Shown: in pieces, positions 10,953-64,000 of the stretch | How positions within the stretch are numbered: position 1 is the first letter of the stretch | Layout of the letters: every line of letters starts with the position of its first letter | NCBI GenBank assembly: GCA_020632035.1 | Contig: JACKGG010000001.1 | Location: 152,985 to 216,984, forward strand | Source of the DNA: Candidatus Nomurabacteria bacterium | Lineage (GTDB): Bacteria > Patescibacteriota > Minisyncoccia > Phycocordibacterales > UBA918 | Length of the DNA stretch: 64,000 bases | Reading direction: 5' to 3' | Program-made: the position numbers and the translations under genes | Notes under the pieces: model-generated | What the model was told of the DNA's origin: nothing | The model's input: only the letters and a program-made list of their open reading frames with translations | Databases searched by the model: none

Positions 10953-11576
10953 CTATTTGTTTGCATACACCACATAACCTAGTGGATAAAAATCTTTGGT
11001 ATACATTTCCCCTTTAAAAAGATTTTCTAACAATTTATCCAATAAAAAACCCAGTTTGATTGAAATAAATCTTAAAATTGGAAAGTGTAGAGCGTTAAAT
11101 TTAAGCTGTGACACAGCACCATAGACACCGGTTCCAACTGCTTCCACCCTTACCTCTTCGAAGCCTGCGTCTTTAAAAAGCCTTTCGAGGGTATCTCCAG
11201 TAAACCGCCAGTGATCATTGGGGCTTGGGTGGACTTGTACTAAAAATGGTACGGCAAAAATAGCAGTTCCTCCTGTCTTCAGTATTCTTCTTGTCTCATT
11301 GATAACATTCCTATAATTATAGATGTGCTCAAGCACATTTATACATAACACTCCATCAAAAGTAGAATCTGCAATCGGAAATGGTTTTTCTAGATCAATC
11401 TTAATATCATTTTCATTATCAACTTCTAAGTTGGCCATAACCAAATCAAACTCCCCGACAAAATTTTTTGGGTAGTCAGATTTTCTTGAACCACCTAAGT
11501 CAAGAATCCTTCCATCCAGACTAATCCCAGACAACTCCTCATACAATAATTTTCTCCATGGTGATCTGACTGTCAT
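10953..11576 (-). CDS. Class I SAM-dependent methyltransferase
   Basis: ILDLGGSRKSD motif I, VLCINVLEHIYN, GGTAIF motifs. Confidence 0.55.
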   Translation of the reverse strand: MTVRSPWRKLLYEELSGISLDGRILDLGGSRKSDYPKNFVGEFDLVMANLEVDNENDIKIDLEKPFPIADSTFDGVLCINVLEHIYNYRNVINETRRILKTGGTAIFAVPFLVQVHPSPNDHWRFTGDTLERLFKDAGFEEVRVEAVGTGVYGAVSQLKFNALHFPILRFISIKLGFLLDKLLENLFKGEMYTKDFYPLGYVVYANK

Positions 11577-13608: not shown

Positions 13609-14463
13609 TTATTTTTCATCCGGCATTACTTCTAGGCCGTACACCTCTCTGACCAAATCAATATTCTTCTTACTCGCTAATAACAACTCGATATTTTTTG
13701 CTTCTAGTGCTTTTAGTACCGCTAAACCTTCTTCATCCATCTCAAGCAAGGATTCATAATGATGACGAAAGGCTGCCATGTCTTTGATGAAGCAGTTTCC
13801 ACCAGCTCCCCTACCTCCCTTATGTACTGGGTCGTTATAATACGGAGACATCATTACATCACTATCCATCATGTTTTTTATTGGTTCCCAATCAGCTCCC
13901 ACGTGAGTGGCCATTTCGTATAATAAATTCGCTAAAATAATGCGAAAGTAACCTTGTATATTATGTGCGTACTTTTGAATCTCAGCTTGTTCTGCTGTCA
14001 CGACAAAATTATGTTCTGAGTGGGGCAAAACACCCATTACTTTTTCTGCGGCCTTCTTTTGCTCTTCTATATCTTGGGTATAGCCAACCACATTCATGAT
14101 TGGATTAGCAGCATCAAAGACGGCCGTTTTTTCAGCCAAGAATTCTGGAGAAAATAAGATTGTTTTAGTTGGAAATTTTTCTTGTAGTTGGCGGGTTGAG
14201 CCTGGCAAGATAGTGGACTTAATCACTACTACCGCCCTATCGGCTACTAAATCTATAACCGACTCAACTATGCCAATATTAGGCCCGGCTGGACCAGTAG
14301 GAGTTGGTACGGCAATAAAAACAATCTCACAATCAGCAATCTTGGTGGCATTATCTTTGTATTCTGGTTCGAGTGCATAACGTACTACTTCATAGCCACG
14401 ATTTTCAAAATCATCACTCATGTTTTTACCCACAAACCCTTGTCCGATATACCCGATTTTCAT
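13609..14463 (-). CDS. NAD-binding dehydrogenase, UDP-glucose/GDP-mannose dehydrogenase N-domain-like
   Basis: MKIGYIGQGFVGKNM Rossmann fold, EIVFIAVPTP motif; only 284 aa so assignment tentative. Confidence 0.35.
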   Translation of the reverse strand: MKIGYIGQGFVGKNMSDDFENRGYEVVRYALEPEYKDNATKIADCEIVFIAVPTPTGPAGPNIGIVESVIDLVADRAVVVIKSTILPGSTRQLQEKFPTKTILFSPEFLAEKTAVFDAANPIMNVVGYTQDIEEQKKAAEKVMGVLPHSEHNFVVTAEQAEIQKYAHNIQGYFRIILANLLYEMATHVGADWEPIKNMMDSDVMMSPYYNDPVHKGGRGAGGNCFIKDMAAFRHHYESLLEMDEEGLAVLKALEAKNIELLLASKKNIDLVREVYGLEVMPDEK

Positions 14464-29289: not shown

Positions 29290-29494
29290 CCTCCTTCCTT
29301 TGAAATGAGGTATTATTTATACCATATTTAATCTTATTTGCCTAGACTTAACTCGTATCTATCAATATCTACTAGATCTCTTCATAGTTCCGAAGGTCGG
29401 TCCTTCGGAAAGCGAGAGGAGGTCCAACTTCATGAGAGAGTTTCTGTCCCGAGGTCTGACCTCGGGACATGAGGTGCATTCTTCAAGAAGTGGT

Positions 29495-30940: not shown

Positions 30941-31171
30941 TCATTCATCAAAAAGTACTTCCGTGGTTTCGACAAAAGTGTCACTACCCCTTTCTCCATT
31001 GCCTTTATCTAGCCTTCTTAAGTAAGCAGCCCGCCTCAACACATAACCGACTAAGATAAGGACGATACCTATAACCATAATAGAGAACTGTCGCCATTCT
31101 TCCGGCACACCGAGAAAAGGTACGATAGTGAGTAAAATTCCAAATACAAATACAATAGTTTCTTTAGACAT
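30941..31171 (-). CDS. Small two-TM membrane protein
   Basis: 76 aa, two hydrophobic helices, basic loop RRAAYLRRLDK. Confidence 0.35.
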   Translation of the reverse strand: MSKETIVFVFGILLTIVPFLGVPEEWRQFSIMVIGIVLILVGYVLRRAAYLRRLDKGNGERGSDTFVETTEVLFDE

Positions 31172-31230
31172 GAGTTGAGTTTCAGTAGTAATAACTCATT
31201 TTAACCTGTCACGATGATAACGCCAAATTA

Positions 31231-31267
31231 ACAAAAAATTAGAGGTCTACACTAACGCATAGACCTC
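31231..31267 (-). terminator. Rho-independent terminator after hypothetical gene 31318..32343
   Basis: Minus-strand hairpin gaggtcta-cactaacgca-tagacctc followed by T-run (taattttttgtt). Confidence 0.55.
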
Positions 31268-31317
31268 CAGTGCTCCTAAATAACGGATATTCTTATACCA
31301 CCACTTACATTGGATGG

Positions 31318-32343
31318 CTACTCCTTACGCCAACGAACAGGATTACGAGAAATGACAGAAGCTAAATTACGAGCCTTAAGTGCATTCAGTATGACCGAAG
31401 AAAGATCCCTTTGATGGTATTGTTCAGACCAGTAATCGATACTGTCCGAAGCTGCACCAGAATATTCAGCTGGTGCAAACATTCGTACGCTAAATTGCAC
31501 TTCTGGATCACAATTGGATTCACGTGAGAATTCCAAAGTAGTGCGACCATCGTACTTAAGTGCTCCTCTACGCCAGGTAACGTCGGTCTCCTTTTTACCG
31601 TCAATCACTTTCATATACACTGGAATATCATGATATAGACCCACCGGCCAACCCTGCCCACCTGTAACATAATCTTCATGCAAGCAAGCGGCTACATCAG
31701 AAGCAGTGCTGATATACCAATTAACATCAGGTATGTAACCGGCCATTATGGTGAGCTGTTCAGCTATATCATCCCTCCAACAGCTAGTAGTTATAAGACG
31801 CTCTTTCACGAATGGCCTCCAACCGTGAAGACCCTGGTCAGACAGCAATCTTTCCATGGTCTCTGTCGCTTTCCTGTGAACCTCTCCATTACTATCAGAG
31901 GTCCTGAAGGCAACAGCCTGGCCAAACTTCTTCAACCTCAAGCCGACATTGATCAGTGGCAACTGCAAACTGGCCTCTTCCCCATTTTGCAGCGTTTCAT
32001 CCAAACTAATTATTTCTTCCTTGAAATTGAATAGTTTTCCATAATCATTGACCATATTGCCCAGTAGAAATTCCAGCGGGTCTGAAAATTCTTTTTTCCC
32101 TCCTTTACAGTTGCGCACATAATCACTGATAAATCTTACGACAACTTTCCCTATATACCTTGTGTCGAGAGAATCATCGCGGAAGTCAATCCCATGCTCA
32201 TATAGAAAAGGATAAAGATGTCTTACTTCAACTAACTTTGGTTCGTTCATTTCGAAGATCTCCTGAGAGAACAATGAGTGCAGTCGCCTGCAAACCGTCC
32301 GATTGCTCGGCCGGATGAAACGAGGGGATCCCATTTCACCCAA
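31318..32343 (-). CDS. Hypothetical cytoplasmic protein (no recognisable family)
   Basis: 341-aa ORF (alternative ATG at 32250, MNEPKLVEV); followed by intrinsic terminator 31231-31267. Confidence 0.4.
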   Translation of the reverse strand: MGEMGSPRFIRPSNRTVCRRLHSLFSQEIFEMNEPKLVEVRHLYPFLYEHGIDFRDDSLDTRYIGKVVVRFISDYVRNCKGGKKEFSDPLEFLLGNMVNDYGKLFNFKEEIISLDETLQNGEEASLQLPLINVGLRLKKFGQAVAFRTSDSNGEVHRKATETMERLLSDQGLHGWRPFVKERLITTSCWRDDIAEQLTIMAGYIPDVNWYISTASDVAACLHEDYVTGGQGWPVGLYHDIPVYMKVIDGKKETDVTWRRGALKYDGRTTLEFSRESNCDPEVQFSVRMFAPAEYSGAASDSIDYWSEQYHQRDLSSVILNALKARNLASVISRNPVRWRKE

Positions 32344-32414
32344 AAAAAAACTTAATGTAAGCAGTATTTTGGGTGAATACGATTTCCGTATTAAATACTT
32401 TTATTTTTACTAAG

Positions 32415-33095
32415 TCAATGAATTTCAACAATAACGACAAACTCGCCTTTCTGTCTGACTGGCTCCCCTTCCAGCACCTTTAGGACTTCTTGAGGGGTTC
32501 CGATTATCATTTCTTCGAACATTTTTGTTAGCTCGCGACCAAGGTAGATTTGAGCATTTGGATAAATTTCCGCTAAACTGGTGAGAGTTTTTATTATTCG
32601 ATGAGTTGATTCGAAGAAGACTGCTGGCTCAGTCTTGGTCGCGAGAGTTTTGAAAAAAGTCTCACGACCTTTCTTGAGAGGAGCAAAACCAAGAAATGTG
32701 AACTTATTGCCAGCAATTCCAGCTAGTGAGACAGCGGTAGTAACAGCCGATGGGCCTGGAATAGCTTCTATGAGCGCGCCCGCTTTGCGGGCGCGCTGTA
32801 CCAAAATCACCCCAGGATCACTAATCCCCGGAGTACCGGCGTCACTTACTAAAGCAAAATGTTTACCTTCCATGAGCTCAGTAATAATACGCTCGTGATC
32901 ACCTTCACTAGCATGAGCATCGTAGCGACGTAAGGGCTTCTTGACTTCATAGTGAGCAAGCAACTTCCCTGTCACTCGAGTATCTTCACATAACACAACA
33001 TCGCACTCTTTAAGAGTCCGCAGAGCACGCAGGGTAATATCCTCCAGATTTCCGATAGGAGTGGCAACTATAGATAATTTTCCATTTTCAGACAT
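32415..33095 (-). CDS. rsmI: 16S rRNA (cytidine1402-2'-O)-methyltransferase
   Basis: LSIVATPIGNLEDITLRALRTLKECDVVLCEDTR N-terminal signature of RsmI tetrapyrrole-methylase fold. Confidence 0.85.
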   Translation of the reverse strand: MSENGKLSIVATPIGNLEDITLRALRTLKECDVVLCEDTRVTGKLLAHYEVKKPLRRYDAHASEGDHERIITELMEGKHFALVSDAGTPGISDPGVILVQRARKAGALIEAIPGPSAVTTAVSLAGIAGNKFTFLGFAPLKKGRETFFKTLATKTEPAVFFESTHRIIKTLTSLAEIYPNAQIYLGRELTKMFEEMIIGTPQEVLKVLEGEPVRQKGEFVVIVEIH

Positions 33096-33146
33096 AACAG
33101 TAAGCTACCATTATATCGATATTAAAAAAAGCCAGGTCAATCCCTT

Positions 33147-33167
33147 GACCTAGGGTAACCCTAGGTC
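33147..33167. repeat. REP-like palindrome (gacctagggtaaccctaggtc), left flank of Y1 transposase
   Basis: Perfect palindrome; second copy at 33864-33900 and third copy inside murD at 39061-39081. Confidence 0.7.
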
Positions 33168-33849
33168 AGCTTTGGTGACCTTTTAAAATATCGGTATTGT
33201 ATGCTAACCACTCAAACAATTCTTTTTTCATATCTATATGACTAGAAAAATAATCTGGGAATGGAGACGAATCTAAAACGGCTTTTTCTGGTCGATTTAA
33301 TCCTAAATGATCAGGCAAACTTGAATACTGATAAGTCGATACGAATTTATACGCAGTTTCTAAATTCTTTATCCCCCTCTCTACCCAATCTGATTGATAC
33401 AACTTAACAGGATTAAGGTGTATATAGGAATATAAATATTTTAAATATTCATCTTCTCCGGCGTGTTTAGCTTTATAATTTCCTTGGAACAAGGTGCCGG
33501 TACGCTCGTTTCTTTTATTAAAATACATTGAGTAACTTGTACATAATTTATTCATAAAAATACCTAGACCATCATCAGTATGTGGTGTGGCTATAATATG
33601 AAAATGATTAGGCATAAGACAGTATGCGCCGATAGAGACAAGTTGTTCCTTCCTATTAAATTCAAATATATTTTTACCCGACCTAGAAATATTACGATAG
33701 TTTACTGATACTGATGAATTACAAAGATATAAAAGATCAATAAATCTTTTATAATCTGCAGTATCAGTAAAGATAATTCTTCTGTCGGTACCTCTATTAT
33801 AAATATGATAAAACTCGCCAGTTGAAAAACTTATACTCCTGGTTGCCAT
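33166..33849 (-). mobile_element. HUH Y1 tyrosine transposase, IS200/RAYT-like (REP-associated)
   Basis: HuH motif CLMPNHFHIIAT and catalytic Tyr region YSYIHLNP; flanked on both sides by the same palindrome. Confidence 0.6.
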
Positions 33850-33863
33850 TTTTGTATACTAAC

Positions 33864-33900
33864 ACAACCTGACCTAGGGTAACCCTAGGTCAGGTTGTGT
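33864..33900. repeat. REP-like palindrome, right flank of Y1 transposase (extended 18-bp stem)
   Basis: acacaacctgacctagggt-a-accctaggtcaggttgtgt. Confidence 0.7.
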
Positions 33901-33922
33901 TATCTGCCGAAAATTTACAATA

Positions 33923-34870
33923 TTACTTCCAGTTAAATCCCCTACCAAAGTGTCCCCAAGCAGCAGTGTCTTTGTAGATCGGAGCTTCAAGTTGGAGGAA
34001 TGACTTTATGCCATTTGGAGTTAGGTCGTAACCTTCCACATCTTCTGGCACGCCATCGACTATCGCAACCGCCATTAGCGCTTCTGGGTGACCTATGGCG
34101 TAGGCTAGTTTTACCAATACCTTTTGTGCCTCTGGGTATTTTTCTAAGTAATCTACAGCGATTCTTCTCGCCATGTAGGCTGCACTTCTGTCCACCTTAC
34201 TTGGGTCTTTTCCAGAAAAAGCTCCCCCACCAACTGCAATCTCAGGACCGTAGTTATCGATAATTATCTTTCTGCCAGTGAGACCCGCGTCGGCATCGAA
34301 GCCTCCTTGATTCCAGTCTCCAGCTGGATTTACGTGGTACGCTCCAGCGCCAGAAATAATACTTTCTACTAATGGTAGCAATTCCGCAGTCGGTGCGTTT
34401 TGGAAACTACAAACTACTGAGTGAATAGTTCCATCTTCGTCTACCGTCACCTGAGTCTTACCATCGTATGGGTATTTTTCGTACACCGCTTGGCAGAGAC
34501 CTCGAGCTAGTTCGTATTCTTTTGGCATGAAGGTATCGGTTTCTCTGGTAGCATAGCCAGTCATGATTCCTTGGTCACCTGCTCCACCAGTATCTACACC
34601 TTGGGCAATTTCTCTACTCTGCTCAACAATATGAATTGTTACATCCTCTACATCTGGCGCAATTGCTTTTACAATTCCAAGCACATCTACATCTTTAGCG
34701 AGAGTGGTGACTTCACCAGTGACAAGTATCTTACCGTGCGAACCAACAGTCTCCACTGCTACTCGACTCTTTGGGTCTTGTTCTAAGTAGGCATCTAATA
34801 CGGCGTCGGATATTCGATCACACATTTTGTCTGGGTGTCCTGGTGATACACATTCGGCTGTCTTTAACAT
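33923..34870 (-). CDS. metK: S-adenosylmethionine synthetase (short form)
   Basis: SPGHPDKMCDRISDAVLDAYLEQDPKSRVAVET, GAGDQGIMTGYA, DxSxVDRSAAY motifs; ATG at 34868-34870 preferred over upstream TTG. Confidence 0.8.
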   Translation of the reverse strand: MLKTAECVSPGHPDKMCDRISDAVLDAYLEQDPKSRVAVETVGSHGKILVTGEVTTLAKDVDVLGIVKAIAPDVEDVTIHIVEQSREIAQGVDTGGAGDQGIMTGYATRETDTFMPKEYELARGLCQAVYEKYPYDGKTQVTVDEDGTIHSVVCSFQNAPTAELLPLVESIISGAGAYHVNPAGDWNQGGFDADAGLTGRKIIIDNYGPEIAVGGGAFSGKDPSKVDRSAAYMARRIAVDYLEKYPEAQKVLVKLAYAIGHPEALMAVAIVDGVPEDVEGYDLTPNGIKSFLQLEAPIYKDTAAWGHFGRGFNWK

Positions 34871-34892
34871 TGTTTTATTTCTTAATTTTATA

Positions 34893-34920
34893 AAACACAA
34901 AATGCGTCATAACATGACGC
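34893..34920 (-). promoter_or_regulatory. Terminator-like hairpin + U-run inside the metK 5' leader (possible attenuator/riboswitch expression platform)
   Basis: Minus strand gcgtcat-gtt-atgacgc followed by ttttgtgtttt, 30 nt upstream of metK ATG; additional perfect 17-bp hairpin at 35013-35056. Confidence 0.4.
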
Positions 34921-35370
34921 ACCAGAGGAGTTACGCATCTACCTCACTTTCGTGAGTTGAAGGTCGCACCGTTTTCTCAAAAAATCTGAAAAATGGTTGC
35001 GGACGGAGTTTCGGTCAGCCGGAGAGTTTCTCTTGAGAAAAACTCTCCGGCTGACCATCGGGTCAATTCCCTATTCCGTTCTCTGGATACTGGTATTTAA
35101 TTGTGTACGTACATTATAACTCAAATTTTATAAAAAAGTTACAAAATGATACTTAATTACTGCATGAATTATGTGCCATAATTCATTGACTATAAGGAGG
35201 TTTCGTGTTATTGTTGTTCCGAAAACAGTTCTGAACCTAATGTTCTGTACATCTAAAACTAACTACATACTACACCTGGAGGTGTTACATGTTTGAATGG
35301 TTGATATTGATAGTGCCAGCAGATACTATCTGGCTGGCAATTCATCACCGGAGCAATTATTTCAACTGGA

Positions 35371-36225
35371 ATGGTTACCCCTGATGCTTTCTTTTGGCAA
35401 TTGGGTGCAATCCCTCTTCTCATGATAATGGCGGGTAAGCGTAATATCCAATTCGGAATTCGTGAGATCGTGCTCCTAACCGGTATGATTGCCTTGTCCC
35501 ACGAAATATACGGCGTCATCGGATTAGGACTTCGTGCTGCCGGAATACTGCTTGGGGCCACTACCTTTGTTGGAATTCTTTCTGTCGTCTCCTACCTGGT
35601 ATTAGGTTTCATCGTCAACGGTAGTGCCGGCGCAGAAGAGGGTGATGTGGAGAGCCAAGTACTCAAACTTCTCTTACTCGGCATTGTCAGTGTCGCCGCT
35701 TTCTTTGGTGCCTACACCGGCATCTCGATTGATGAACTGTTCGCGGTTCTCGCTCGAGTCGAATGGATGACTAGCCAGGGTTGGAGCTACTGGGTCATGG
35801 CGGCCAATATTACCGTCGCGATGACGATATTGTGGGCGATTCTGCTGATCGAAGGCGTGATTATTTACCTCGTAGTTAAAAAAGCAGAAGATACTATGGC
35901 AATGGACTGGCTTGAGAAGCATGAGGGCTGGGTCATGTTCTTTGTCTTCAGTTTCCTGGCCTACTTCACAACTCGTGGTTGGTACCAGAACTACTATGGC
36001 TACAATCCGGTGGAATGGCACATCATGGGTCACAACACTGGTTTTGCCTACTACGTGTACATAGTCGGTGGATTTCTGCCTATGATCATCCTCCGCCTAC
36101 TACTGCTGGTCAAGCCAGTGCGTATACTCTTGCTCTGGCTCTGCAAGCCACAGCAAAAGATGCTTGATTGGCTTGAAGAATTGAGTCAACGTCGAGCAGA
36201 ACGCAAAATGGCAGCGATGAGCTGA
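35371..36225 (+). CDS. Hypothetical polytopic membrane protein
   Basis: 284 aa, about 8 TM helices; followed by two tandem hairpins (36245-36290, 36303-36333). Confidence 0.45.
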   Translation: MVTPDAFFWQLGAIPLLMIMAGKRNIQFGIREIVLLTGMIALSHEIYGVIGLGLRAAGILLGATTFVGILSVVSYLVLGFIVNGSAGAEEGDVESQVLKLLLLGIVSVAAFFGAYTGISIDELFAVLARVEWMTSQGWSYWVMAANITVAMTILWAILLIEGVIIYLVVKKAEDTMAMDWLEKHEGWVMFFVFSFLAYFTTRGWYQNYYGYNPVEWHIMGHNTGFAYYVYIVGGFLPMIILRLLLLVKPVRILLLWLCKPQQKMLDWLEELSQRRAERKMAAMS

Positions 36226-36341
36226 TACTGTTCTACGGAACGCCCAAGGGCGTCCACACAAAACATCGTGTTGGACGCCCTTTCTTATTATTTCTGTTTT
36301 ATTGGCCGGCGCGAAGCGCCGGCATTTTCATTTAAAAATTT

Positions 36342-37646
36342 CTACTTCACCAAACTCCCCGCCAACTCAGTCACATCCCCTGCTCCCATCACTACTACCA
36401 CATCTTCATCTGAGATTTTCTGTCTAAGGAGTTTTTCGGCTGACTCAAAGCTATCGGCATAGGATGAATTGGAAGTAAACTCTAGAGACTTCACCGATAG
36501 TTCCCTACTTGTCACTCCACTTACATTCTCCTCGCGCGCCGAGTAGATAGGTAAAAACAATACAGCATCGGCTAAGCCAACCGCTTTGGCAAATTCGTCA
36601 AACAGTTGCTTGGTGCGGGTGTAGGTGTGTGGCTGAAAGACAATGGTCAACTTTTTATCTGGATAGAGTTCGCGAGCAGCACTAATAGTAGCGCGGATCT
36701 CGGTCGGGTGATGTCCGTAGTCGTCGTAGACTGGAGCACCGTTTAATTCACCTTTGTATTCAAACCGGCGCCAAGTACCGGTAAAGTTCATTAAGGCAGC
36801 TTTGGCTTTTTCTAAATCTAATTTCTCATGCCGAGCGACTGCGCTTGCCGCAGCTGCGTTCAGCCGGTTATGGAAGCCTGGTTGCTTGAGCTCCAGGTCT
36901 AGATCTAAAATATCTAAATAATTAACCACCGGCACCGACAAGTCTTTTAATATCGGTGCTACGTTAGCATCGGAGGTATTGGCAATTACTACCCCACCTT
37001 CATTTACTTGTTCAGCCAATTGTCTAAAAGCAGACTGCACATCAGCCAAGTCTTTGTAGTAGTCGACGTGCTCGTACTCAACATTGGTAATCACCAAGAT
37101 GTCTGGCTTGAGGTGCAAGAAATCTCGTTTGTATTCACAAGCTTCTACAATCGCATACTTACTCTTCCCAGCTCGATAATTGCTCTTGGTCTTAGCTCGG
37201 AGCGAGCCAATGATAGCCGTCGGATCTTTATCTAGAGCTTCAAAAATATCGGTCAGCATGGCAGTAGTGGTGGTCTTGCCGTGAGTACCAGTGATAGCAA
37301 TCAGGTAGTAGGGATTGAAGGCTAAGCCTTCAGCTTCAAAAAGATTAACGGTGGGTATTTTTAGTTCCTTAGCTTTTTTTAGTTCCCGGTATCCTTCAGT
37401 TGTTTTGTTAACCGCTTCAGTGTAAATCACCAGCTCAATGTCCTTTGTTATATTCTCAGCTACTTGCTCGGCAAAAATTTGTACTCCTTCTTTAGCGAGT
37501 TCTTTGGTAATCAGGCTGAGAGTTCGATCCGATCCACTGACTTTTTTCTTTTCAGTTAAAAAATGCCGAGCGAGTGCTGACATTCCGATTCCGCCTATCC
37601 CGATGAAATGTATGCGGGATATCTTATCTATTTTAGGGGTTGACAT
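36342..37646 (-). CDS. murC: UDP-N-acetylmuramate--L-alanine ligase
   Basis: HFIGIGGIGMSALARHF N-terminal signature; Mur ligase central domain GTHGKTTTTAM; C-terminal DDYGHHPTEI. Confidence 0.85.
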   Translation of the reverse strand: MSTPKIDKISRIHFIGIGGIGMSALARHFLTEKKKVSGSDRTLSLITKELAKEGVQIFAEQVAENITKDIELVIYTEAVNKTTEGYRELKKAKELKIPTVNLFEAEGLAFNPYYLIAITGTHGKTTTTAMLTDIFEALDKDPTAIIGSLRAKTKSNYRAGKSKYAIVEACEYKRDFLHLKPDILVITNVEYEHVDYYKDLADVQSAFRQLAEQVNEGGVVIANTSDANVAPILKDLSVPVVNYLDILDLDLELKQPGFHNRLNAAAASAVARHEKLDLEKAKAALMNFTGTWRRFEYKGELNGAPVYDDYGHHPTEIRATISAARELYPDKKLTIVFQPHTYTRTKQLFDEFAKAVGLADAVLFLPIYSAREENVSGVTSRELSVKSLEFTSNSSYADSFESAEKLLRQKISDEDVVVVMGAGDVTELAGSLVK

Positions 37647-37700
37647 ATACTAAGATTATCATAATATCAGCCTCAGCACATCTTTACAGGAGTAAATAGA

Positions 37701-38417
37701 ATGACGAAATCATATGTTCTTCAGAAACCCGAATACACTGTAGCTCTATATGGACCTAGCAAAGAAAGAGTCAGGTCTATACCAGTTAAACATGGAGCAA
37801 ATAAAAATAAGATTTGCTTACTGAAAGCAGCTAGTAATGAAACCCATCGTGGTTTTACGGAAATGTCAGCACCAAAATTTGGTAATTGGTTCAGTAATGA
37901 CTTCGATTTGTTTGCTGACGGTACGACCCTGACTGAATCTCGTTCGTCGGTTGTCGTTCAAACTGCCGGTTGCAACCTGCTTTCACTATACGAACGTACG
38001 ACCCACAGTCTATCTGTAAGTCATGTCGGTAGGCCAGCCTTAACACCAAGGAATAAAATAGGTGAACCAATCATAAATATGGTCACTAAAGCTTACCAAC
38101 AATTGGTATTTGGTGTAAAAAACCCTGAGGTAGAAGCTTACATAACTGGAGGCGTTTGTAGCAAACATTTTCTTCACGATAGACCAGAAGCGAAGCATCT
38201 GATTGAACCCTTTGATCAGTTTGGTGAGCTTGCATTCACTGACCGTGAAACTGGAGCGCTTGATATACAACGCATCATCATTTATCAACTTCTGGAACTC
38301 GGGGTAAAAGAATACAAAATTGAAACCGATGGCTTGTGCACCAAGGAAGAACCTTGGCTAACCAACTATCGAGACGATACTGTATCTCGTAATGTGGTAG
38401 TTTTTGTTCTTCATTAA
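37701..38417 (+). CDS. PgeF/YfiH-like (DUF152, peptidoglycan editing factor/laccase-domain) protein, motifs degenerate
   Basis: VQTAGCNLL (cf TADC), SHVGRPAL (cf HAGWRG), CSKHFLHD; adjacent to murC and murD. Confidence 0.4.
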   Translation: MTKSYVLQKPEYTVALYGPSKERVRSIPVKHGANKNKICLLKAASNETHRGFTEMSAPKFGNWFSNDFDLFADGTTLTESRSSVVVQTAGCNLLSLYERTTHSLSVSHVGRPALTPRNKIGEPIINMVTKAYQQLVFGVKNPEVEAYITGGVCSKHFLHDRPEAKHLIEPFDQFGELAFTDRETGALDIQRIIIYQLLELGVKEYKIETDGLCTKEEPWLTNYRDDTVSRNVVVFVLH

Positions 38418-38438
38418 TTAATCTGAAATCCAGATTAC

Positions 38439-38472
38439 AAAAGGCGCGGTCCAGAGACCGCGCCTTTTTTAT
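38439..38472. terminator. Bidirectional rho-independent terminator between convergent PgeF-like and murD genes
   Basis: aaaaggcgcggtc-cagag-accgcgcctttttt. Confidence 0.7.
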
Positions 38473-39824
38473 TCTTTGATATCAATTTCATTTATACATC
38501 TAACAAACTCGTCGTTTCTCTCATATTCATTTTTGAACATTCCAAATGAGGCGAAACCTGGGCTAAAGAGGAGGACGTCTCCGGGTTGGCCGGAGGCCAA
38601 CCCGGCCGAAACAGCATCAGACAAACTCCCCACCACCTCAGACTCAACCATTTCTTTTAGAACATCTGTACCCGTGCCCTTTAATAAAACAATCTTCTTA
38701 CAGAACTTCTTTGTCTCTTCGGCCAAAGGAGATGGGTCAATATTTTTGTATGCGCCACCGGCAATTAGAATTACATTCTTATCATTAATATTTCCCACAG
38801 CTTGCAAACCTTTTACCGTTGCTTCAGGAATTGTAGAATTATTATCATTATAAATCTTTACCCCATTTTTTTCTCCTAGGTATTCGAGCCGACCAGGTAC
38901 GCCTGGAAAACTAGCCAATCCAGCGAAAATAGACTCTTCATCTAAACTAACTGCCTTCAAGGCTTCGCAAGCAATGGCGGCGTTTAGTCGATTATGTGCT
39001 CCAGGCATGGCCAATAGCGCGTCTTCGGGGATAACTGACTCATCTACCAACTTGACCTCTTGACCTAGGGTTACCCTAGGCAATTGTTTAGCTAGTTCAA
39101 AAACTTCTGGAGTGGTGACGAGGACTCCGCTTTCTTCTTGGTATTCAAATATATTGGCTTTGTCGGCAAAATATAATTTCAAAGCTTCTTCTTTAGTTCT
39201 ACCTCCAGCTTGATAGTAGTTGAGGTGATCTTCCATAAAGTTGGTAAATACAGCAACTTGTGGACTCATCTTTGACCATCCCCAGCCTTGTAACTGCCAA
39301 GAGTCTAACTCCATAACACAGAGTGAATCTTCATTTACTTCATCTAAAAGTTGTAGATTGGAAACACCACGGACATTCCCGCCGAGAAGGACTTTTTCAC
39401 CAGTTACTTCAGTCAAAACATGATGAATCATGTGTGTGACAGTAGACTTCCCCCTAGTACCAGTCACTCCAATAATCGGTACTTTAGAAATTTCGGCAAA
39501 CCAAGCTGCCGATTGTTTGAGTGGCACGCCCGCTTTGCGGGCGTGCTCAAAGACTTCCAAATCCATCGGAGCTCCAGCACCCACCAAGACAAAGTCACAT
39601 TCAGTGAAGTGTTCCTTTTGATATGGACCAAAAGAAAATCTGACATTTGGATAGTCTGCCAATGCATCGACGGATGGTTGCATTACTTCTTCTGAGGCAT
39701 CATCAACCACGTGTACTTCAGCTCCTGCATCAGCTAAAAATTTTGCGTCGCCGACACCTCTACCAAGTAGGCCAATTCTCATTACAGTTATTTTCTTTCC
39801 GTAAAAATATTCTTTAAAATTCAT
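38469..39824 (-). CDS. murD: UDP-N-acetylmuramoylalanine--D-glutamate ligase
   Basis: N-terminal MRIGLLGRGVGDAKFLADAGAEV, IIGVTGTRGKSTVTHMIHHVL P-loop, MPGAHNRLNAAIACEALKA; contains in-frame REP copy (39061-39081) and GC palindrome (39534-39556). Confidence 0.75.
   Translation of the reverse strand: MNFKEYFYGKKITVMRIGLLGRGVGDAKFLADAGAEVHVVDDASEEVMQPSVDALADYPNVRFSFGPYQKEHFTECDFVLVGAGAPMDLEVFEHARKAGVPLKQSAAWFAEISKVPIIGVTGTRGKSTVTHMIHHVLTEVTGEKVLLGGNVRGVSNLQLLDEVNEDSLCVMELDSWQLQGWGWSKMSPQVAVFTNFMEDHLNYYQAGGRTKEEALKLYFADKANIFEYQEESGVLVTTPEVFELAKQLPRVTLGQEVKLVDESVIPEDALLAMPGAHNRLNAAIACEALKAVSLDEESIFAGLASFPGVPGRLEYLGEKNGVKIYNDNNSTIPEATVKGLQAVGNINDKNVILIAGGAYKNIDPSPLAEETKKFCKKIVLLKGTGTDVLKEMVESEVVGSLSDAVSAGLASGQPGDVLLFSPGFASFGMFKNEYERNDEFVRCINEIDIKE
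39061..39081. repeat. REP-like palindrome copy (tgacctagggttaccctaggca) inserted in-frame inside murD
   Basis: Same cctagggt-N-accctagg palindrome as flanks of transposase at 33166-33849; encodes LPRVTLGQE in murD reading frame. Confidence 0.65.
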
Positions 39825-39926
39825 ACCACCATACTAGTAAAAATACCTATAAAAAGCCATAGATGAAGGACCTTTGTCTGATTTATTATACTGGAGTACT
39901 ATAGGTTTAAGATCTATTCATAATCA

Positions 39927-40958
39927 TTGTTATATATGAGAATCGAGGAAGATTTGAAGCTAGACTATAGTGATGTGCTCATTCGACCTAAAAGAAGTGC
40001 TCTATCCAGCCGAAAAGAAGTAAATCTTGAACGCGAATTTAAGTTTAGACATGGAGATAAAAACTGGAAAGGAATTCCTATCATTGCCTCAAACATGGAC
40101 GGAATCGGTACCATATCAATGATGAAATCTCTATCAAAGCAAAAAATGATGGTCGCTTTACATAAGCACTATGAATCAGAGAGATACTCGGAAATTATAG
40201 ATGAGTTTACTTTTCTCACCAGTGGAATAAAAGAAGAAGATTTGGAAAAATTAGAAGCTCTACAAAAAAATAAACCTATAAGATTTATCTGTCTAGACGT
40301 AGCAAATGGATACACTGAAAGATTTGTTTCAGTTGTCAGTCGAGTGAGAGAGATGTGTCCGGACAGTATTATCATGGCCGGAAACGTAGTAACTGGTGAA
40401 ATGACCGAGCAACTCATTCTTTCTGGTGCAGATATTATAAAAATAGGTATTGGACCAGGCTCTGTTTGCACAACTAGAGCCAAAGCTGGAGTCGGATATC
40501 CACAACTCTCTGCTGTAATTGAATGTGCAGATGCAGCTCACGGACTCAATGGTATGGTTTGTGCAGACGGCGGATGTACCAATCCTGGTGATATTGCCAA
40601 AGCTTTCGGAGCTGGTGCTGATTTTGTTATGTTGGGAGGAATGTTAGCTGGACACACTGAATCAGAGCTTGAGCTAATTGAAAAAGATGGACTACAATAT
40701 TGCGAATATTATGGCTCCAGTTCTCAAAAAGCGATGCAAAAACACTCTGGAGGAAAAGCTGAATATAGAGCATCGGAAGGAAAAGAAGTGCTTATTCCGT
40801 TCAAAGGAGATGTGTCTAAAACCCTAGAGGAAATTCTGGGTGGTGTTCGTTCGGCGTGTACATACGCAGGAGCGGAAACGTTAAAACAACTTTCTAAATG
40901 CACCACCTTCGTGAGGGTCAGTAACCAAACTAACAACATATTCGGACTTCCTCAATAA
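39927..40958 (+). CDS. guaC: GMP reductase (IMPDH/GuaC family)
   Basis: DYSDVLIRPKRS, IIASNMDGIGT, KIGIGPGSVCTTR (catalytic Cys loop), 343 aa matches GuaC length. Confidence 0.75.
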   Translation: MLYMRIEEDLKLDYSDVLIRPKRSALSSRKEVNLEREFKFRHGDKNWKGIPIIASNMDGIGTISMMKSLSKQKMMVALHKHYESERYSEIIDEFTFLTSGIKEEDLEKLEALQKNKPIRFICLDVANGYTERFVSVVSRVREMCPDSIIMAGNVVTGEMTEQLILSGADIIKIGIGPGSVCTTRAKAGVGYPQLSAVIECADAAHGLNGMVCADGGCTNPGDIAKAFGAGADFVMLGGMLAGHTESELELIEKDGLQYCEYYGSSSQKAMQKHSGGKAEYRASEGKEVLIPFKGDVSKTLEEILGGVRSACTYAGAETLKQLSKCTTFVRVSNQTNNIFGLPQ

Positions 40959-40978
40959 ATTAGTGCTATTATTCTGTT

Positions 40979-41167
40979 ATGAAAACTAATGGGAATGATA
41001 AATCGTTGGAAGCATACAAAATATTCCCGTACGTAGCCTGGATACTTACAGCATGCTTCGCTTTTTTTGTCTATAAAATCACTACCGACCTGAAGTCAGT
41101 AGTTGCTGACTTACAAGAACAAACCCAACGACTACAGGATAAAGTTGACACTCCATTGAAGACATAG
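40979..41167 (+). CDS. Hypothetical small membrane protein (62 aa)
   Basis: Single TM helix ORF followed by hairpin at 41180-41212. Confidence 0.3.
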   Translation: MKTNGNDKSLEAYKIFPYVAWILTACFAFFVYKITTDLKSVVADLQEQTQRLQDKVDTPLKT

Positions 41168-41470: not shown

Positions 41471-41772
41471 GTCCGCGCTCTAGGGTTCGAACCTAGGACC
41501 TTTCGAGTATCAGTCGAATGCTCTACCAACCCTATTGCCTCGTAAACATCGGCAATTCGCTCCGCGACCGGGAAAAATACTATACGTATTTTTCAGCTCG
41601 CGCGTACAAGTAAAAAACATCGTCCGCGCTCTAGGGTTCGAACCTAGGACCTTTCGAGTATCAGTCGAATGCTCTACCAACCCTATTGCCTCGTAAACAT
41701 CGGCAATTCGCTCCGCGACCGGGAAAAATACTATACGTATTTTTCAGCTCGCGCGTACAAGTAAAAAACATC
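41471..41772 (-). repeat. Perfect 2 x 151-bp tandem repeat, each unit = 3' ~60 nt of tRNA-Ile + 90-nt spacer
   Basis: Units 41471-41621 and 41622-41772 are identical by eye; each begins with tRNA-Ile 3' portion (T-arm, anticodon arm, part of D-arm) and diverges at the D-loop. Confidence 0.85.
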
Positions 41773-42856: not shown

Positions 42857-43087
42857 TTAAAACTCTACTTCTGTTCGTAAGGGTTTATTCATAATCATAA
42901 CTCACAGCAGACTTGGAGTGTCACGTACTCTTTTGTCTTATCCTTTAGGCTTGGTCTTTCCCAAGAGTCTAATACCATTTCAGAGAATTGAGTATCATTT
43001 CTCGTTATGTGCTCAATTGAGGCACATAACACCGACCAATTAGTTATCATTGTGCTTTGTTACCAAAACACGACAACGTATCCAATT

Positions 43088-44545
<1,458 letters not shown>

Positions 44546-54448: not shown

Positions 54449-55240
54449 TTACTGGCGGACCAGTAGCACTAAATTCTTTAATAAATAAGCAATGGTGATC
54501 GGACCGATACCGCCAGGAACAGGCGTCAAAAGCTTTGCTTTTGACGCCACTTGAGGAGCCACATCTCCAACCAAGACCCCCCCATCTTCTGAAGTCCCAG
54601 CATCAAAAATAATGACCCCGTCTTTGACCGAGTCAGCTTCAATAAAGTGCGGCTGACCGATACCAGTAATTATAATATCAGCTAACTTTAACACATCTGT
54701 TGAATAGGTTTCTTTGGTTAAAACCTTTACTACTCCACCCTTTTTTTGTGCGTAGTGAGCGGCTGGCATCCCGACCAATCTGCCCTCACCCATAACCACA
54801 ACTGACTTACCTTGCCACTCAATATTATGAAGCTTACTTATTTCATCAATGGCCCCAACTACAGGCGACAAACACGCATCGCTAATTTGGCCGTACTTAA
54901 ATCCATCTGGGTCTTTTCCAGACGGAATTCCTGCCAAGACTTTATCTCGATCGATTTGCACAGGCAGTGGTAACTGAACAATTATTCCGTCAGAGTCTCC
55001 TATCACTTGTTTGATGCAATTCAGAACTTCCTCAGTTGAAATATCAGCTGGTAATTCAATAATATTGAGACCAACTCCAACCGAAGAAGCTTTCTTCTTC
55101 TTCATATCTAAGTATTTTTGAGTCTCGAAATTTGGTGCACAAGTAATAATAGAAAGCCTAAGCGGGCGCCCAATTGAAGAAACATCCTCGGCCACTTGTT
55201 TCAACACTCCTGCAGCAATAGTTTTTCCGTCAACTAACAT
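54449..55240 (-). CDS. folD: Bifunctional methylenetetrahydrofolate dehydrogenase/cyclohydrolase
   Basis: LVDGKTIAAGVLKQVAEDV, YLDMKKKKA, GKSVVVMGEGRLVGMPAA, PVPGGIGPITIAYLL motifs. Confidence 0.75.
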   Translation of the reverse strand: MLVDGKTIAAGVLKQVAEDVSSIGRPLRLSIITCAPNFETQKYLDMKKKKASSVGVGLNIIELPADISTEEVLNCIKQVIGDSDGIIVQLPLPVQIDRDKVLAGIPSGKDPDGFKYGQISDACLSPVVGAIDEISKLHNIEWQGKSVVVMGEGRLVGMPAAHYAQKKGGVVKVLTKETYSTDVLKLADIIITGIGQPHFIEADSVKDGVIIFDAGTSEDGGVLVGDVAPQVASKAKLLTPVPGGIGPITIAYLLKNLVLLVRQ

Positions 55241-57902: not shown

Positions 57903-59057
57903 ATGCCCATAAATCAAAAAATACTCTATCTGGTCACCAAAAGTAATTATGGAGGCGGGCAAAAATATGTCCTCGAGTTAGCGGAAGCTGCGAAAAAATC
58001 TGGGTATTTTGTGACGGTTGCTTGTGGTGGCACCGGCAAAGCCGGTGCCGGGACAGGCGTCTTGGTAGAAAAATTAAATAAAAAAAGTATACCAGTTGTA
58101 AAAGTAGAAAATTTCATGAGGGACATGTCTTTTCTAAGTGACCTGCTCGCCTTTTTTGAAGTCTGGAAAATAATTAGAAACCAAAAGCCAGACATCCTCC
58201 ACGTAAACAGCTCCAAAGCCGGGGGTATTGGAGCTTTGGCCGGACGCTTGGCTGGAACAAAAAATATCATCTTCACTTCTCACGGCCTCACTATCGATGA
58301 AGTCTGGCGACCACGTTGGCAGAGAATCCTAATCTACATCGGAACCTGGCTGACCATAAAACTGGCTCATAAAAGCATCATGATTTCGATCGAAACTTAT
58401 GAAAGAGCTAAAAATATGCCAGGACTTGCTGATAAGATTTTCTTAGTGAAAAACGGCATCGCTCCAATAGATTTTTTAGACAAACCTAAAGCAAGAAAAA
58501 GTTTATCTGAAGCTATACCACCAAAAGGGTTCTGGGTCGGAGGGATTGGTGAACTCCACCCTAATAAAAATTGGTCTGCTGCGATTGAAGCCATGGCTAC
58601 CCTTCCCGTAAAAATCCACTTGATTATTATTGGCGAAGGTGAAGAAAGGGCTAATCTGGAAAAACTTATTCAATCAAAAAACCTGCAAAATAGGGTTCAT
58701 TTACTGGGTTTTATTGACAATGCATCCAGTTATCTAAGAGCCTTTGATGCCTTCATTTTAGTATCAAAAAAAGAGGGTCTCCCCTACGTGTTACTAGAAG
58801 CTGGGCTAGCTTCCCTCCCGACCATCGCTAGTGACCTACCCGGCAACCACGACATTATTGAAACCGGGAAAAATGGTTTCTTGATTGAACCTACTCCTAA
58901 GATGATTTCTACCACTGTCGAAATGCTTTTCCGAGATGAGGGTATGCGCCGAACTTTGGGCCAAAGTTTACATGAAACTATCCAAAAAGATTTCTCGATA
59001 GACAACATGTCTTCACAGACATTCTCTGTCTATGATTCTAGTAGATCTGAAGCCTGA
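57903..59057 (+). CDS. Glycosyltransferase family 4
   Basis: LIIIGEGEERANL...EGLPYVLLEAGLASLPTIASDLPGNHDIIE EX7E motif. Confidence 0.65.
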   Translation: MPINQKILYLVTKSNYGGGQKYVLELAEAAKKSGYFVTVACGGTGKAGAGTGVLVEKLNKKSIPVVKVENFMRDMSFLSDLLAFFEVWKIIRNQKPDILHVNSSKAGGIGALAGRLAGTKNIIFTSHGLTIDEVWRPRWQRILIYIGTWLTIKLAHKSIMISIETYERAKNMPGLADKIFLVKNGIAPIDFLDKPKARKSLSEAIPPKGFWVGGIGELHPNKNWSAAIEAMATLPVKIHLIIIGEGEERANLEKLIQSKNLQNRVHLLGFIDNASSYLRAFDAFILVSKKEGLPYVLLEAGLASLPTIASDLPGNHDIIETGKNGFLIEPTPKMISTTVEMLFRDEGMRRTLGQSLHETIQKDFSIDNMSSQTFSVYDSSRSEA

Positions 59058-61661: not shown

Positions 61662-61684
61662 TGTCCAGCACCGAGTGCTGGACA
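61662..61684. repeat. REP-like palindrome 2 (tgtccagcaccgagtgctggaca), left flank of second Y1 transposase
   Basis: Identical 23-mer also at 62393-62415. Confidence 0.7.
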
Positions 61685-62392: not shown

Positions 62393-62415
62393 TGTCCAGC
62401 ACCGAGTGCTGGACA
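62393..62415. repeat. REP-like palindrome 2, right flank
   Basis: tgtccagcaccgagtgctggaca. Confidence 0.7.
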
Positions 62416-63121: not shown

Positions 63122-63233
63122 AAGTTGGCGCCTACCTACTCTTCCCCTTGCGGAGTACCATCGGTGGTAGAAGACTTTACTGCCGTGTTCGGAATGAGAA
63201 CGGGTGTACCCCTTCCCCCAAAGCACCAACTTG
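63122..63233 (-). rRNA. rrf: 5S ribosomal RNA
   Basis: Minus strand AAGTTGGTGC...CACCCGTTCTCATTCCGAACACGGCAG...GATGGTACTCC...GAGTAGGTAGGCGCCAACTT; helix I pairing of ends; matches bacterial 5S consensus (CCGAACACGG, GATGGTA). Confidence 0.8.
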
Positions 63234-63415
63234 AAAGGCTCGATTTTGATTTTAAAAAACTTTTAGTTGTGTACCCTTGAAATTGTCTCCCAGACAATTT
63301 CAATCCCTCAGCACCAACTTTAAGAATTTAATTCGTTATTTAACTTGCTTCAATCGCGTGAAATGGTGATATGTTGTCGTGAGTCCTTATACTCTGATTA
63401 GTAACATCTCGTAAA

Positions 63416-63524
63416 TGGTAGGGGTAGCAGGAATTGAACCCACCGCCTTTGCTTGATCGCACTCGTAGCGAGCTCAGGCCCTTCGCGAGAACCAGTATTC
63501 TTTGTCCATCCAAGTGGTACCCCT
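63416..63524 (-). ncRNA. tRNA-like structured element (acceptor-like stem + T-arm-like GGTTCAATTCC + encoded CCA) in 23S-5S spacer, flanked by 17-bp inverted repeats
   Basis: Minus strand AGGGGTA...GTGGGTTCAATTCCTGCTACCCCTACCA; inverted repeats caatcgcgtgaaatggt at 63351-63368 and 63562-63578; could not be folded into a canonical cloverleaf. Confidence 0.25.
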
Positions 63525-63789
63525 TGAATAAACTACTGACACTCTATACCCCCGTGAAATTACCATTTCACGCGATTGAAAATTCACATATTCAAGAGAC
63601 TCTTCGAACTCGACCTTTCAGCCGAGCATTAGGTAACACTTCACTCATCAAATTACACAGTTCAAAATCTTACAAATTGCCTGCATTTCTAGGCGCGCCA
63701 GAAAGATTTTTGGAACGGGGCTTGTGCCCAGTGACAAAAATCTTTTGCCAGCGCAACACCGAAATGCTGCAATTTTAAGGTTTTGATGT

Positions 63790-64000
<211 letters not shown>

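Follow-up and report, generated by a model that had tools for sequence, protein, structure and literature searches.

Two genes in a 64,000-nucleotide stretch of the Candidatus Nomurabacteria bacterium contig JACKGG010000001.1 (positions 152,985 to 216,984; this whole stretch is hereafter called the window), rsmI and murD, each carry a GC-rich perfect palindrome within their coding sequence. They are not inserted elements; we consider, with a probability of roughly 0.55, that they are coding palindromes kept perfect by hairpin-mediated copying of one arm onto the other (template switching). The first palindrome, S1, lies at positions 32773-32797 of the window in rsmI (AGCGCGCCCGC-TTT-GCGGGCGCGCT) and has a perfect 11-bp stem and a 3-nt loop. 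On the minus strand it reads (C)AG CGC GCC CGC AAA GCG GGC GCG CT(C), encoding Q R A R K A G A L. The second, S2, lies at 39524-39546 in murD (GCACGCCCGC-TTT-GCGGGCGTGC), has a perfect 10-bp stem and reads CAC GCC CGC AAA GCG GGC GTG, encoding H A R K A G V. At both sites the lysine codon is the loop, AAA on the minus strand, while the outer stems differ (GCG/CGC versus GCA/TGC). Folded as DNA hairpins, S1 reaches a free energy (dG) of -17.1 kcal/mol (z = -6.3) and S2 one of -14.9 kcal/mol.

Both host genes are on the minus strand. rsmI (32415-33095), encoding the 16S rRNA (cytidine1402-2'-O)-methyltransferase, matches the RsmI profile TIGR00096 with 220 bits (cut-off 167.9), and murD (38469-39824), encoding the UDP-N-acetylmuramoyl-L-alanine--D-glutamate ligase, matches the MurD profile TIGR01087 with 266 bits (cut-off 212). 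These matches bear out the gene names given in an earlier reading of the window made from the letters alone (the sequence-only reading), which had also correctly placed and spelled S1 and had recognized that both sites encode A-R-K-A-G on the minus strand in two unrelated proteins. For S2, its sequence was right, but its position, 39534-39556, was 10 bases too high. Its description of the palindromes as GC-only was nearly accurate: they are 78 to 80% GC, in a window of 41.5% GC, but each stem contains one A-T pair. The exact 15-mer is present in two copies in the 64-kb window. Allowing up to 3 mismatches brought no further match in the window (the four hits are the two sites counted on both strands), and 0 of 100 shuffles reached 4 matches.

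The two palindromes were compared with 80 related loci fetched through their MurD proteins (labels L001 to L087), 64 of which also contain a syntenic rsmI. Because the loci were picked via murD, the murD and rsmI sites are over-sampled. The window and these related Paceibacteria loci together make up a comparison set of 1.2 Mb. The exact MurD protein of the window is found on one other contig (GCA_020428885.1, JAGQMB010000075.1), on which the murD stretch is 100% identical. Our protein search returned no relative between 86% and 100% identity, the nearest being at about 86%, and a metagenome scan for close relatives gave 7 loci only, all of them at most 84% identical.

The sequence-only reading had suggested a second family of intragenic palindromic elements, under which A-R-K-A-G would be an insertion in both proteins. 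An insertion is contradicted by the orthologues. E. coli RsmI (...LVRTCREAGIRVVPLPGP..., TCREAGIRV) aligns gaplessly over the ARKAG of the window with CREAG, and two MurD proteins of solved structure (...QAAIAKGISV... and ...QAAAKGVRIS...) align over it, again without a gap, with A(I/A)AKG at this place. Taxa as distant as E. coli thus have the motif at the same positions, an outcome that the sequence-only reading had itself named as refuting its idea, and the 15-residue windows at S1 and S2 have the same length in palindromic and non-palindromic relatives among the 80 loci. An A-R/K-x-A/G-G motif is ancestral at both positions. The gapless alignments and the equal orthologue lengths thus rule out an inserted element at S1 and S2.

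A dispersed family is not supported either. The core GCCCGC-NNN-GCGGGC occurs 17 times in the 1.2 Mb, 16 times at the two orthologous sites and once in intergenic DNA, this single non-orthologous copy being a terminator-like spacer hairpin. The identity between rsmI and murD can be explained without a common origin. A peptide A-R-x-A-G encoded by a perfect in-register palindrome forces CGC for the arginine, GCG for the next alanine, GCC for the first alanine and GGC for the glycine; the next outward codon pair is likewise forced, either R/A (CGC/GCG) or H/V (CAC/GTG), and the loop codon alone is free. The 17-nt identity is therefore dictated by the peptide A-R-K-A-G and by in-register perfect palindromy. 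Since the shared nucleotides are forced and the core is confined to two orthologous sites, bar the one spacer copy, the two palindromes do not represent a dispersed repeat family, a candidate ruled out by the motif counts in both the window and the 1.2 Mb.

Further candidates were rejected. Neither S1 nor S2 is a terminator: there is no T/U tract on either strand and both sites are mid-gene. A terminator scan of positions 31000-41000 gave 15 terminator-like sites, none at S1, S2 or S3 (a further murD palindrome, see below), and an Rfam search of the window at the gathering scores of the families returned rRNAs and one tRNA only, with no match at the palindromes. A DNA uptake sequence or another over-represented signal sequence does not fit two copies per 64 kb, with copies elsewhere in the related loci only at orthologous sites. 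Repetitive extragenic palindromes and bacterial interspersed mosaic elements (REP/BIME) were discarded because S1 and S2 are both intragenic and number two.

What stands of the sequence-only reading is that these are non-random, DNA-level palindromes within genes, belonging to a wider intragenic set in this genome and its relatives. The stem codons are rare in the window, CGC accounting for 13% of Arg, GCG for 13% of Ala and GGC for 20% of Gly codons. Given the peptide and the codon usage of the window, the probability that all six stem codons pair is 1.5e-5 for S1, 9.6e-5 for S2 and 1.6e-4 for S3, which lies at 38581-38605 in the C-terminal part of murD (CCGGGTTGGCC-GGA-GGCCAACCCGG; GC-rich, in-frame, encoding G L A S G Q P, with the loop C[GGA]G on the plus strand). 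As a null model we permuted synonymous codons within each of the 54 called genes of the window, keeping proteins and codon usage; gene calls were crude longest-open reading frame (ORF) calls. Stems of at least 9 bp with a 3-nt loop numbered 6 in the window genes versus 0.28 expected, and those of at least 10 bp numbered 5 versus 0.08. The palindromy of S1 and S2 is well beyond chance.

The excess of perfect palindromes is a property of these genomes as a whole. Counting stems of at least 9 bp with loops of 0 to 6 nt, we found 0.22 palindromes per kb inside ORFs in the 1.2 Mb of Paceibacteria versus 0.009 in E. coli K-12, a density about 25 times higher, although this control comprised 150 kb only and is small. 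Outside ORFs the densities were 1.23 and 0.55 per kb, and stems of at least 18 bp, some of them loopless, numbered 66 versus 0. Leaving out murD and rsmI did not remove the coding excess (25 observed versus 4.0 expected for 9-bp arms, 9 versus 0 for 12-bp arms). For 12-bp arms with 0, 1 and 2 mismatches, 50, 45 and 99 cases were observed versus 0.2, 3.7 and 45 expected, a strong surplus of perfect repeats trailed by decaying ones. In 42 of 54 GC-rich cases the register was such that a codon faces its reverse-complement codon.

The same sites are palindromic in relatives. With stems of at least 9 bp and the same centre counted, window included, S1 (rsmI, RAR.AGAR) is palindromic in 8 of 63 sequences, plus 3 with a shifted centre, S2 (murD, RHAR.AGVP) in 11 of 81, with stems of 10 to 19 bp, and S3 (murD, AGLA.G[QE]PG) in 17 of 81, as a 12-bp palindrome. 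A fourth site, S4 (rsmI, KGR.TFF..L...), is perfect in 17 of 61 sequences with stems of 10 to 19 bp; in the window (32637-32669) it is a decayed quasi-palindrome, complementary at 13 of 15 positions and encoding K G R E T F F K T L A T. At S1 to S4, one codon forms the loop of these perfect palindromes. The palindromic states are largely all-or-none, are differently combined in each genome and are scattered on the MurD tree. This was a quick, rough neighbour-joining tree in which L001, the most similar sequence, was placed away from the window, and it was used for scatter only.

Among relatives with the peptide HAR.AGV, some are palindromic throughout and the others show random codon choice. 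At identical residues, the fraction of identical codons in the stems of palindromic orthologues was 0.91 at S1, 0.91 at S2 and 0.79 at S3, compared with 0.40 to 0.45 in the flanks (codons 7 to 40 away) and 0.28 to 0.30 for the same stem codons in non-palindromic orthologues. Because stem codon identity is far above that of the flanks and of the non-palindromic orthologues, palindromy does not reflect shared DNA ancestry. Moreover, the stems change on both arms together. S2 stems differ by double compensating changes (CCCGC/GCGGG, CCAGC/GCTGG, CCATC/GATGG), and S3 stems use the pairs CTG/CAG, CTC/GAG, TTG/CAA, GTC/GAC and CAC/GTG, as well as GGG/CCC versus GCG/CGC, so that the residues co-vary as L-Q, L-E, V-D, H-V, G-P and A-R. 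In the MurD protein of L018, the conserved VPLKQ has become VPQKQ inside a 19-bp stem. Covariation over the whole S2 alignment was 0.192 versus a shuffled 0.136, and none of 500 shuffles reached the observed value, which is diluted since the stem is present in 11 of 81 sequences only. In each palindrome, a conserved peptide (AGVP, KKGR.TF, VTLGQ) is encoded by one arm, and the opposite arm mirrors it from within a variable stretch. At S4, the left arm, KKGR.TF, is near-invariant (entropy of at most 0.2 bit), while the right arm is variable and mirrors the left.

Mismatches and loops bear on the level at which the hairpin acts. Stems with one mismatch were of the G-T type (G·U in the mRNA) in 6 cases, of the A-C type in 5 and of other, non-wobbling types in 34, mostly at the stem ends; pairing is thus of the Watson-Crick type only. 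Of the triloop hairpins, 51 of 84 within genes and 45 of 114 between genes have a 5'-GNA-3' loop on one strand, versus a background of 16%, and the closing pair of these GNA loops was C-G in 40 of 51 and 33 of 45 cases, respectively. The d(C-GNA-G) motif, for example GCGAAGC, is a very stable DNA mini-hairpin whose stability needs the C-G closing pair (PMC13037366, PMC3201870). This bias of the loops to the stable form implies that intrastrand folding matters, beyond the mere presence of an inverted repeat.

The choice of loop codon follows the same trend, in comparisons whose Fisher tests treat the orthologues as independent and ignore relatedness. In palindromic versus non-palindromic orthologues, the ratio of GAA to GAG was 9:0 versus 30:20, of GTA to other Val codons 6:0 versus 2:8, of GCA to other Ala codons 6:0 versus 10:35 and of TTC (GAA on the other strand) to TTT 12:3 versus 18:25. 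In the window, the S1 and S2 loops are C[AAA]G and thus non-GNA, S3 (GGA on the plus strand) and the palindrome at 397-417 (GCA on the sense strand) fit GNA, and the exact form ...CGC-GAA-GCG... (GCGAAGC) occurs among relatives at S1 and S2. Mismatch types, loop sequence and loop codon choice point to a DNA hairpin. The sequence-only reading had alternatively suggested a recombination or RNA-structure signal. Of these, a signal at the DNA level keeps some probability, but RNA structure is disfavoured, because G-U pairs are not tolerated among the mismatches and the GNA preference of the loops is of the DNA type.

We propose that a peptide whose codons are mutually reverse-complementary around one loop codon (for example Ala GCC/Gly GGC, Arg CGC/Ala GCG or His CAC/Val GTG) would seed a short quasi-palindrome. 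During replication or repair, the nascent strand or a single strand would fold into a hairpin, and one arm would be copied onto the other, most likely by intrastrand template switching (quasipalindrome correction). Such copying would perfect the repeat, extend it outward and remove later mismatches. The constrained arm would presumably serve as the template and the tolerant arm would be overwritten, which could fix rare GC-rich synonymous codons and sometimes swap amino acids, and growth would end where the protein cannot bear the mirrored codon. Our inferences are that template switching homogenises the arms and that the palindromes themselves serve no function. Correction of quasipalindromes by this route was reportedly described by Ripley in 1982 and at the thyA hotspot by the Lovett laboratory.

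The window contains further intragenic palindromes. S5, in murD (39064-39080; CCTAGGGTTACCCTAGG), encodes L P R V T L G Q. A palindrome at 397-417 (CGGGCGCCC-TGC-GGGCGCCCG) is in-frame, encodes K R A P A G R P with the sense loop C[GCA]G, and lies in a minus-strand ORF resembling S-adenosylmethionine (SAM)-dependent methyltransferases that runs off the window start. In folD (54522-54548; GGCGTCAAAAGC-TTT-GCTTTTGACGCC), a perfect 12-bp stem has its loop out of codon register, and in a GT4 glycosyltransferase gene (58029-58049; GGCACCGGC-AAA-GCCGGTGCC), a perfect 9-bp stem encodes G T G K A G A, the Lys codon being supplied by the loop. As single-stranded DNA (ssDNA), S1 to S3 and the hairpins at 397-417, in folD and in the GT4 gene range from -12.5 to -17.1 kcal/mol (z from -4.3 to -6.8), and no T-run follows any of them.

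S5 has 20 nt in common with two intergenic palindromes (33146-33168 and 33860-33902). The sequence CCTAGGGTWACCCTAGG occurs three times in the window, twice just 3' of genes, once of these within a palindrome with a 21-bp stem, and once in S5. The S5 palindrome is also present at the same murD site in L037 (5864-5882), only 62% identical, and thus in 2 of about 80 sequences; in both the window and L037, the usual Gly at this site has become Arg. Related palindromes of the GACCTCGGG / GACCTAGGG type were seen in a spacer of the window (29445-29469 and 29388-29410), in a spacer of L058 (8302-8326) and in rsmI of L045 (5114-5161), the L045 copy being an inserted 48-nt perfect palindrome. Two identical pairs of spacer hairpins were also noted in the window, GAAAAATACTATACGTATTTTTC at 41572-41594 and 41723-41745, near a tRNA gene, and TGTCCAGCACCGAGTGCTGGACA at 61662-61684 and 62393-62415. 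Similar GAAAA(A/T)TGC...GCA(T/A)TTTTC spacer hairpins are present in relatives and may be operator or terminator motifs. Palindrome groups came from k-mer clustering, which chained through low-complexity words and was inspected by eye.

Recurrent sites exist in further genes too: in nine related loci, the conserved NAAAAxAAAA motif of a MurC-like Mur ligase is encoded by a GC-rich palindrome with a 4-nt loop (GCGGCGGC...GCCGCCGC). These genes are orthologues of the window gene at 36342-37646 on the minus strand, the site being at about residue 268, and the window copy is without a perfect palindrome there. As another side observation, the rRNA operon of the window is unlinked, a distance of about 18.6 kb separating the 16S gene from those for 5S and 23S (43085-44544 and 63123-64000).

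Relatives, but not the window, carry in-frame inserted palindromes without a loop, of 22 to 48 nt, that add 4 to 13 residues to MurD compared with the window. Their types (ATAGTACNGTTAACNGTACTAT; CACTATTCCAGTTAACTGGAATAGTG; ATACTCCA-ATCGAT/GTTAAC-TGGAGTAT) are common to different genes, different genomes and intergenic DNA. They are found at about residue 181 of rsmI in L064 (4530-4569) and L076 (14336-14357), and at about residue 395 of murD in L082 (4121-4146), L043 (3946-3973), L020 (11187-11208), L061 (11148-11187), L067 (4598-4631), L075 (4751-4786), L045 (1980-2001) and L016 (11181-11202). Spacers of L082 (100-121), L068 (13880-13927) and L023 (894-931) contain them too. L082 has a palindrome common to murD and a spacer, and near-identical 26-mers occur in rsmI (13971-13996) and murD (11155-11180) of L070. 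The pattern resembles a family of mobile or dispersed palindromic elements of very small size. At the S1 site itself, L046 (14834-14877) has a palindromic insertion with a stem of about 20 bp that adds 9 residues, and a 9-residue insert in L045 and L050 contains GC-rich hairpins. In L071 (4390-4422), a 100% GC 16-bp palindrome stands in place of the local protein sequence.

Several observations count against arm-to-arm copying as the origin of S1 and S2. No template-switch event was seen directly, the nearest relatives being at about 86% protein identity, and in the near-identical pair L082/L083 (99.87%), none of the 15 differences falls inside a palindrome. The mismatch spectrum is not strictly binary but has a tail of forms with 1 or 2 mismatches. 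None of 9 AR.AG peptides elsewhere is palindromic, although this sample is small. The sequence shared by S5 with intergenic palindromes, and by rsmI with murD in L070, needs ectopic copying or mobility besides arm-to-arm copying. Furthermore, the E. coli control covered 150 kb, the ORF calls were crude and the Fisher tests ignored relatedness. Finally, the persistence of palindromes at the same sites, S3 in most of a large clade, and the bias to stable loops also fit a hairpin that is selected.

Such functional hairpins, whose perfection would be kept by natural selection and not by copying, are in our view unlikely, though the likeliest of the alternatives. They could act as DNA, the most plausible level, as an initiation or primase signal, a replication or recombination pause or a protein target, or as RNA, in mRNA stability, RNase III processing or ribosome pausing. 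Lineages saturated at synonymous positions share palindromes at the same sites, S3 is perfect or near-perfect in most carriers of AGLAxG[EQ]PG, and the hairpins are very stable, with loops biased to the most stable d(C-GNA-G) form; GCGAAGC-type mini-hairpins have been reported from phage and plasmid ssDNA priming sites (PMC13037366). A required signal, however, would not come and go, and the palindromes are patchy by site (S5 in 2 of about 80 sequences, S2 in 11 of 81, S1 in 8 to 11 of 63) and variously combined per genome. The sites share no sequence beyond codon-forced bases, lack a U/T tract and an Rfam match, and do not show the G-U tolerance that an RNA helix would permit. The amino acid changes in essential enzymes would be a cost, and the palindrome excess extends to many other genes and to spacers.

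The remaining alternatives concern the likeness of S1 and S2 to each other. One hairpin, probably S2 in murD, might have templated S1 in rsmI, 6.7 kb away, which would account for AAA being the loop of both. This Lys codon is frequent in MurD at the S2 site and, among cleanly aligning RsmI orthologues, is found only in the window (the divergent L021 also has AAA); in addition, identical palindromes do occur at unrelated loci of one genome (rsmI and murD of L070, murD and a spacer of L082, S5 and two spacers of the window). Nevertheless we regard such ectopic copying as improbable, as the loop codon alone is informative, S1 loops vary (AAA, GAA, GCA, GTA, ATA, AGA, ACC), giving a chance match of about 0.05 to 0.15, and the outer stems differ. 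We hold it to be very improbable that S1 and S2 are small mobile or dispersed intragenic elements, similar to the Rickettsia palindromic elements (RPEs), that brought in ARKAG. Such an origin would account for the identical 17-mer in both genes and for a loop Lys that is unusual among RsmI orthologues, where E, A or Q predominates, and it has parallels in the true inserted palindromes of relatives, including those at S1 (L046, L045, L050) and the loopless ones, and in the 20 nt that S5 has in common with two intergenic copies. It is opposed by the absence of any length difference with the 80 relatives or E. coli, by the fact that all 17 shared nucleotides save the loop are forced by peptide and palindromy, and by the occurrence of the core at only two orthologous sites in 1.2 Mb, apart from one terminator-like spacer copy, with two copies in the window. 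That two Rossmann-type helix-Gly-strand motifs are encoded alike by coincidence is scarcely credible. A-R/K-x-A-G is a common helix C-cap motif, conserved in both families, but the probability of 1e-5 to 1e-4 per site, the 6 palindromes observed versus 0.28 expected in shuffles, which already refute a coincidence, the HAR.AGV relatives that are either fully palindromic or random in codons, and the stem identity of 0.91 versus 0.45 in the flanks all speak against it.

Arm-to-arm copying of coding palindromes thus remains our preferred explanation. A broader reading, which we put forward only tentatively and consider doubtful as a whole, is that Paceibacteria, within the Patescibacteria or candidate phyla radiation (CPR), have an unusually active hairpin-dependent DNA process, either a self-perpetuating palindrome drive or a hairpin-recognising machinery. 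This process would write and keep perfect C[GNA]G-looped palindromes in essential genes, recoding up to about 13 residues, and in some lineages would also spread tiny (22 to 48 nt) in-frame palindromic insertions common to unrelated genes and spacers.

If copying between arms is indeed the cause, a DNA-structure process, and not protein function, would in part set the sequences of core enzymes in a major bacterial lineage without cultivated members. Residue pairs (L-Q, G-P, R-A, H-V) would co-vary since their codons must be reverse complements, and some amino acid covariation and some "conserved" rare codons in these bacteria would not be protein-level signals. The palindromes would also offer a natural system, with hundreds of independent replicates, in which template-switch mutagenesis is set against purifying selection, and would suggest a connection with the small set of DNA-repair and nuclease functions left in CPR bacteria. 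Finally, they would illustrate how unrelated genes can come to contain the same oligonucleotide by convergence, with no mobile element involved.

Our search of a literature library found no paper on coding palindromes in Patescibacteria. Several known systems are similar in part. Rho-independent terminators likewise have a GC-rich stem and a short loop, but S1 and S2 are without a T-run and lie mid-gene. REP/BIME are GC-rich and hairpin-forming like S1 and S2; however, they are extragenic, present in high copy number and defined by their sequence (PMC3733652), whereas S1 and S2 are intragenic, number two and are defined by codons. RPEs are palindromic DNA translated within functional proteins, as here, but they are multi-copy insertions of 100 to 150 bp that add residues, while S1 and S2 add none and are not multi-copy; only the short inserted palindromes of some relatives behave in an RPE-like way. 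The d(GNA) mini-hairpins are a structural motif and not a genetic element, and their known contexts are ssDNA replication origins and promoters (PMC13037366, PMC3201870).

Two systems are closer. Template switching at quasipalindromes was put forward by Lavi et al. (2018, PMC5941160) to account for perfect inverted repeats in non-coding regions of Proteobacteria. Those short perfect inverted repeats are over-represented, and their perfection is conserved beyond that of their surroundings, as in our case, but here they lie in essential coding sequence and override amino acids. For the coding palindromes of Nematomorpha mitochondria, arm-to-arm conversion by template switching was proposed, the palindromes being possibly parasitic and non-functional (2019, PMC6649704). 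As in Nematomorpha, the repeats of Paceibacteria are perfect inverted repeats in conserved coding sequence, without insertion and with both arms translated; they are mostly perfect, are gained and lost between species, make use of degenerate codon positions and have a non-random register. Unlike those of the organelle, they reside on a bacterial chromosome (Patescibacteria, class Paceibacteria), with stems of 9 to 24 bp instead of up to 284 bp and with loops that nearly always consist of a single codon. Phase 2, in which a codon faces its reverse-complement codon, is the dominant register here (42 of 54) and phase 1 in Nematomorpha, and the recurrence of the same sites over many genera and the d(C-GNA-G) loop signature are particular to the bacterial palindromes. 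Should the tentative drive reading be true, bacteria would have their own equivalent of what is seen in Nematomorpha mitochondria, and selfish or structural DNA of a new kind would be shaping proteins in reduced genomes.

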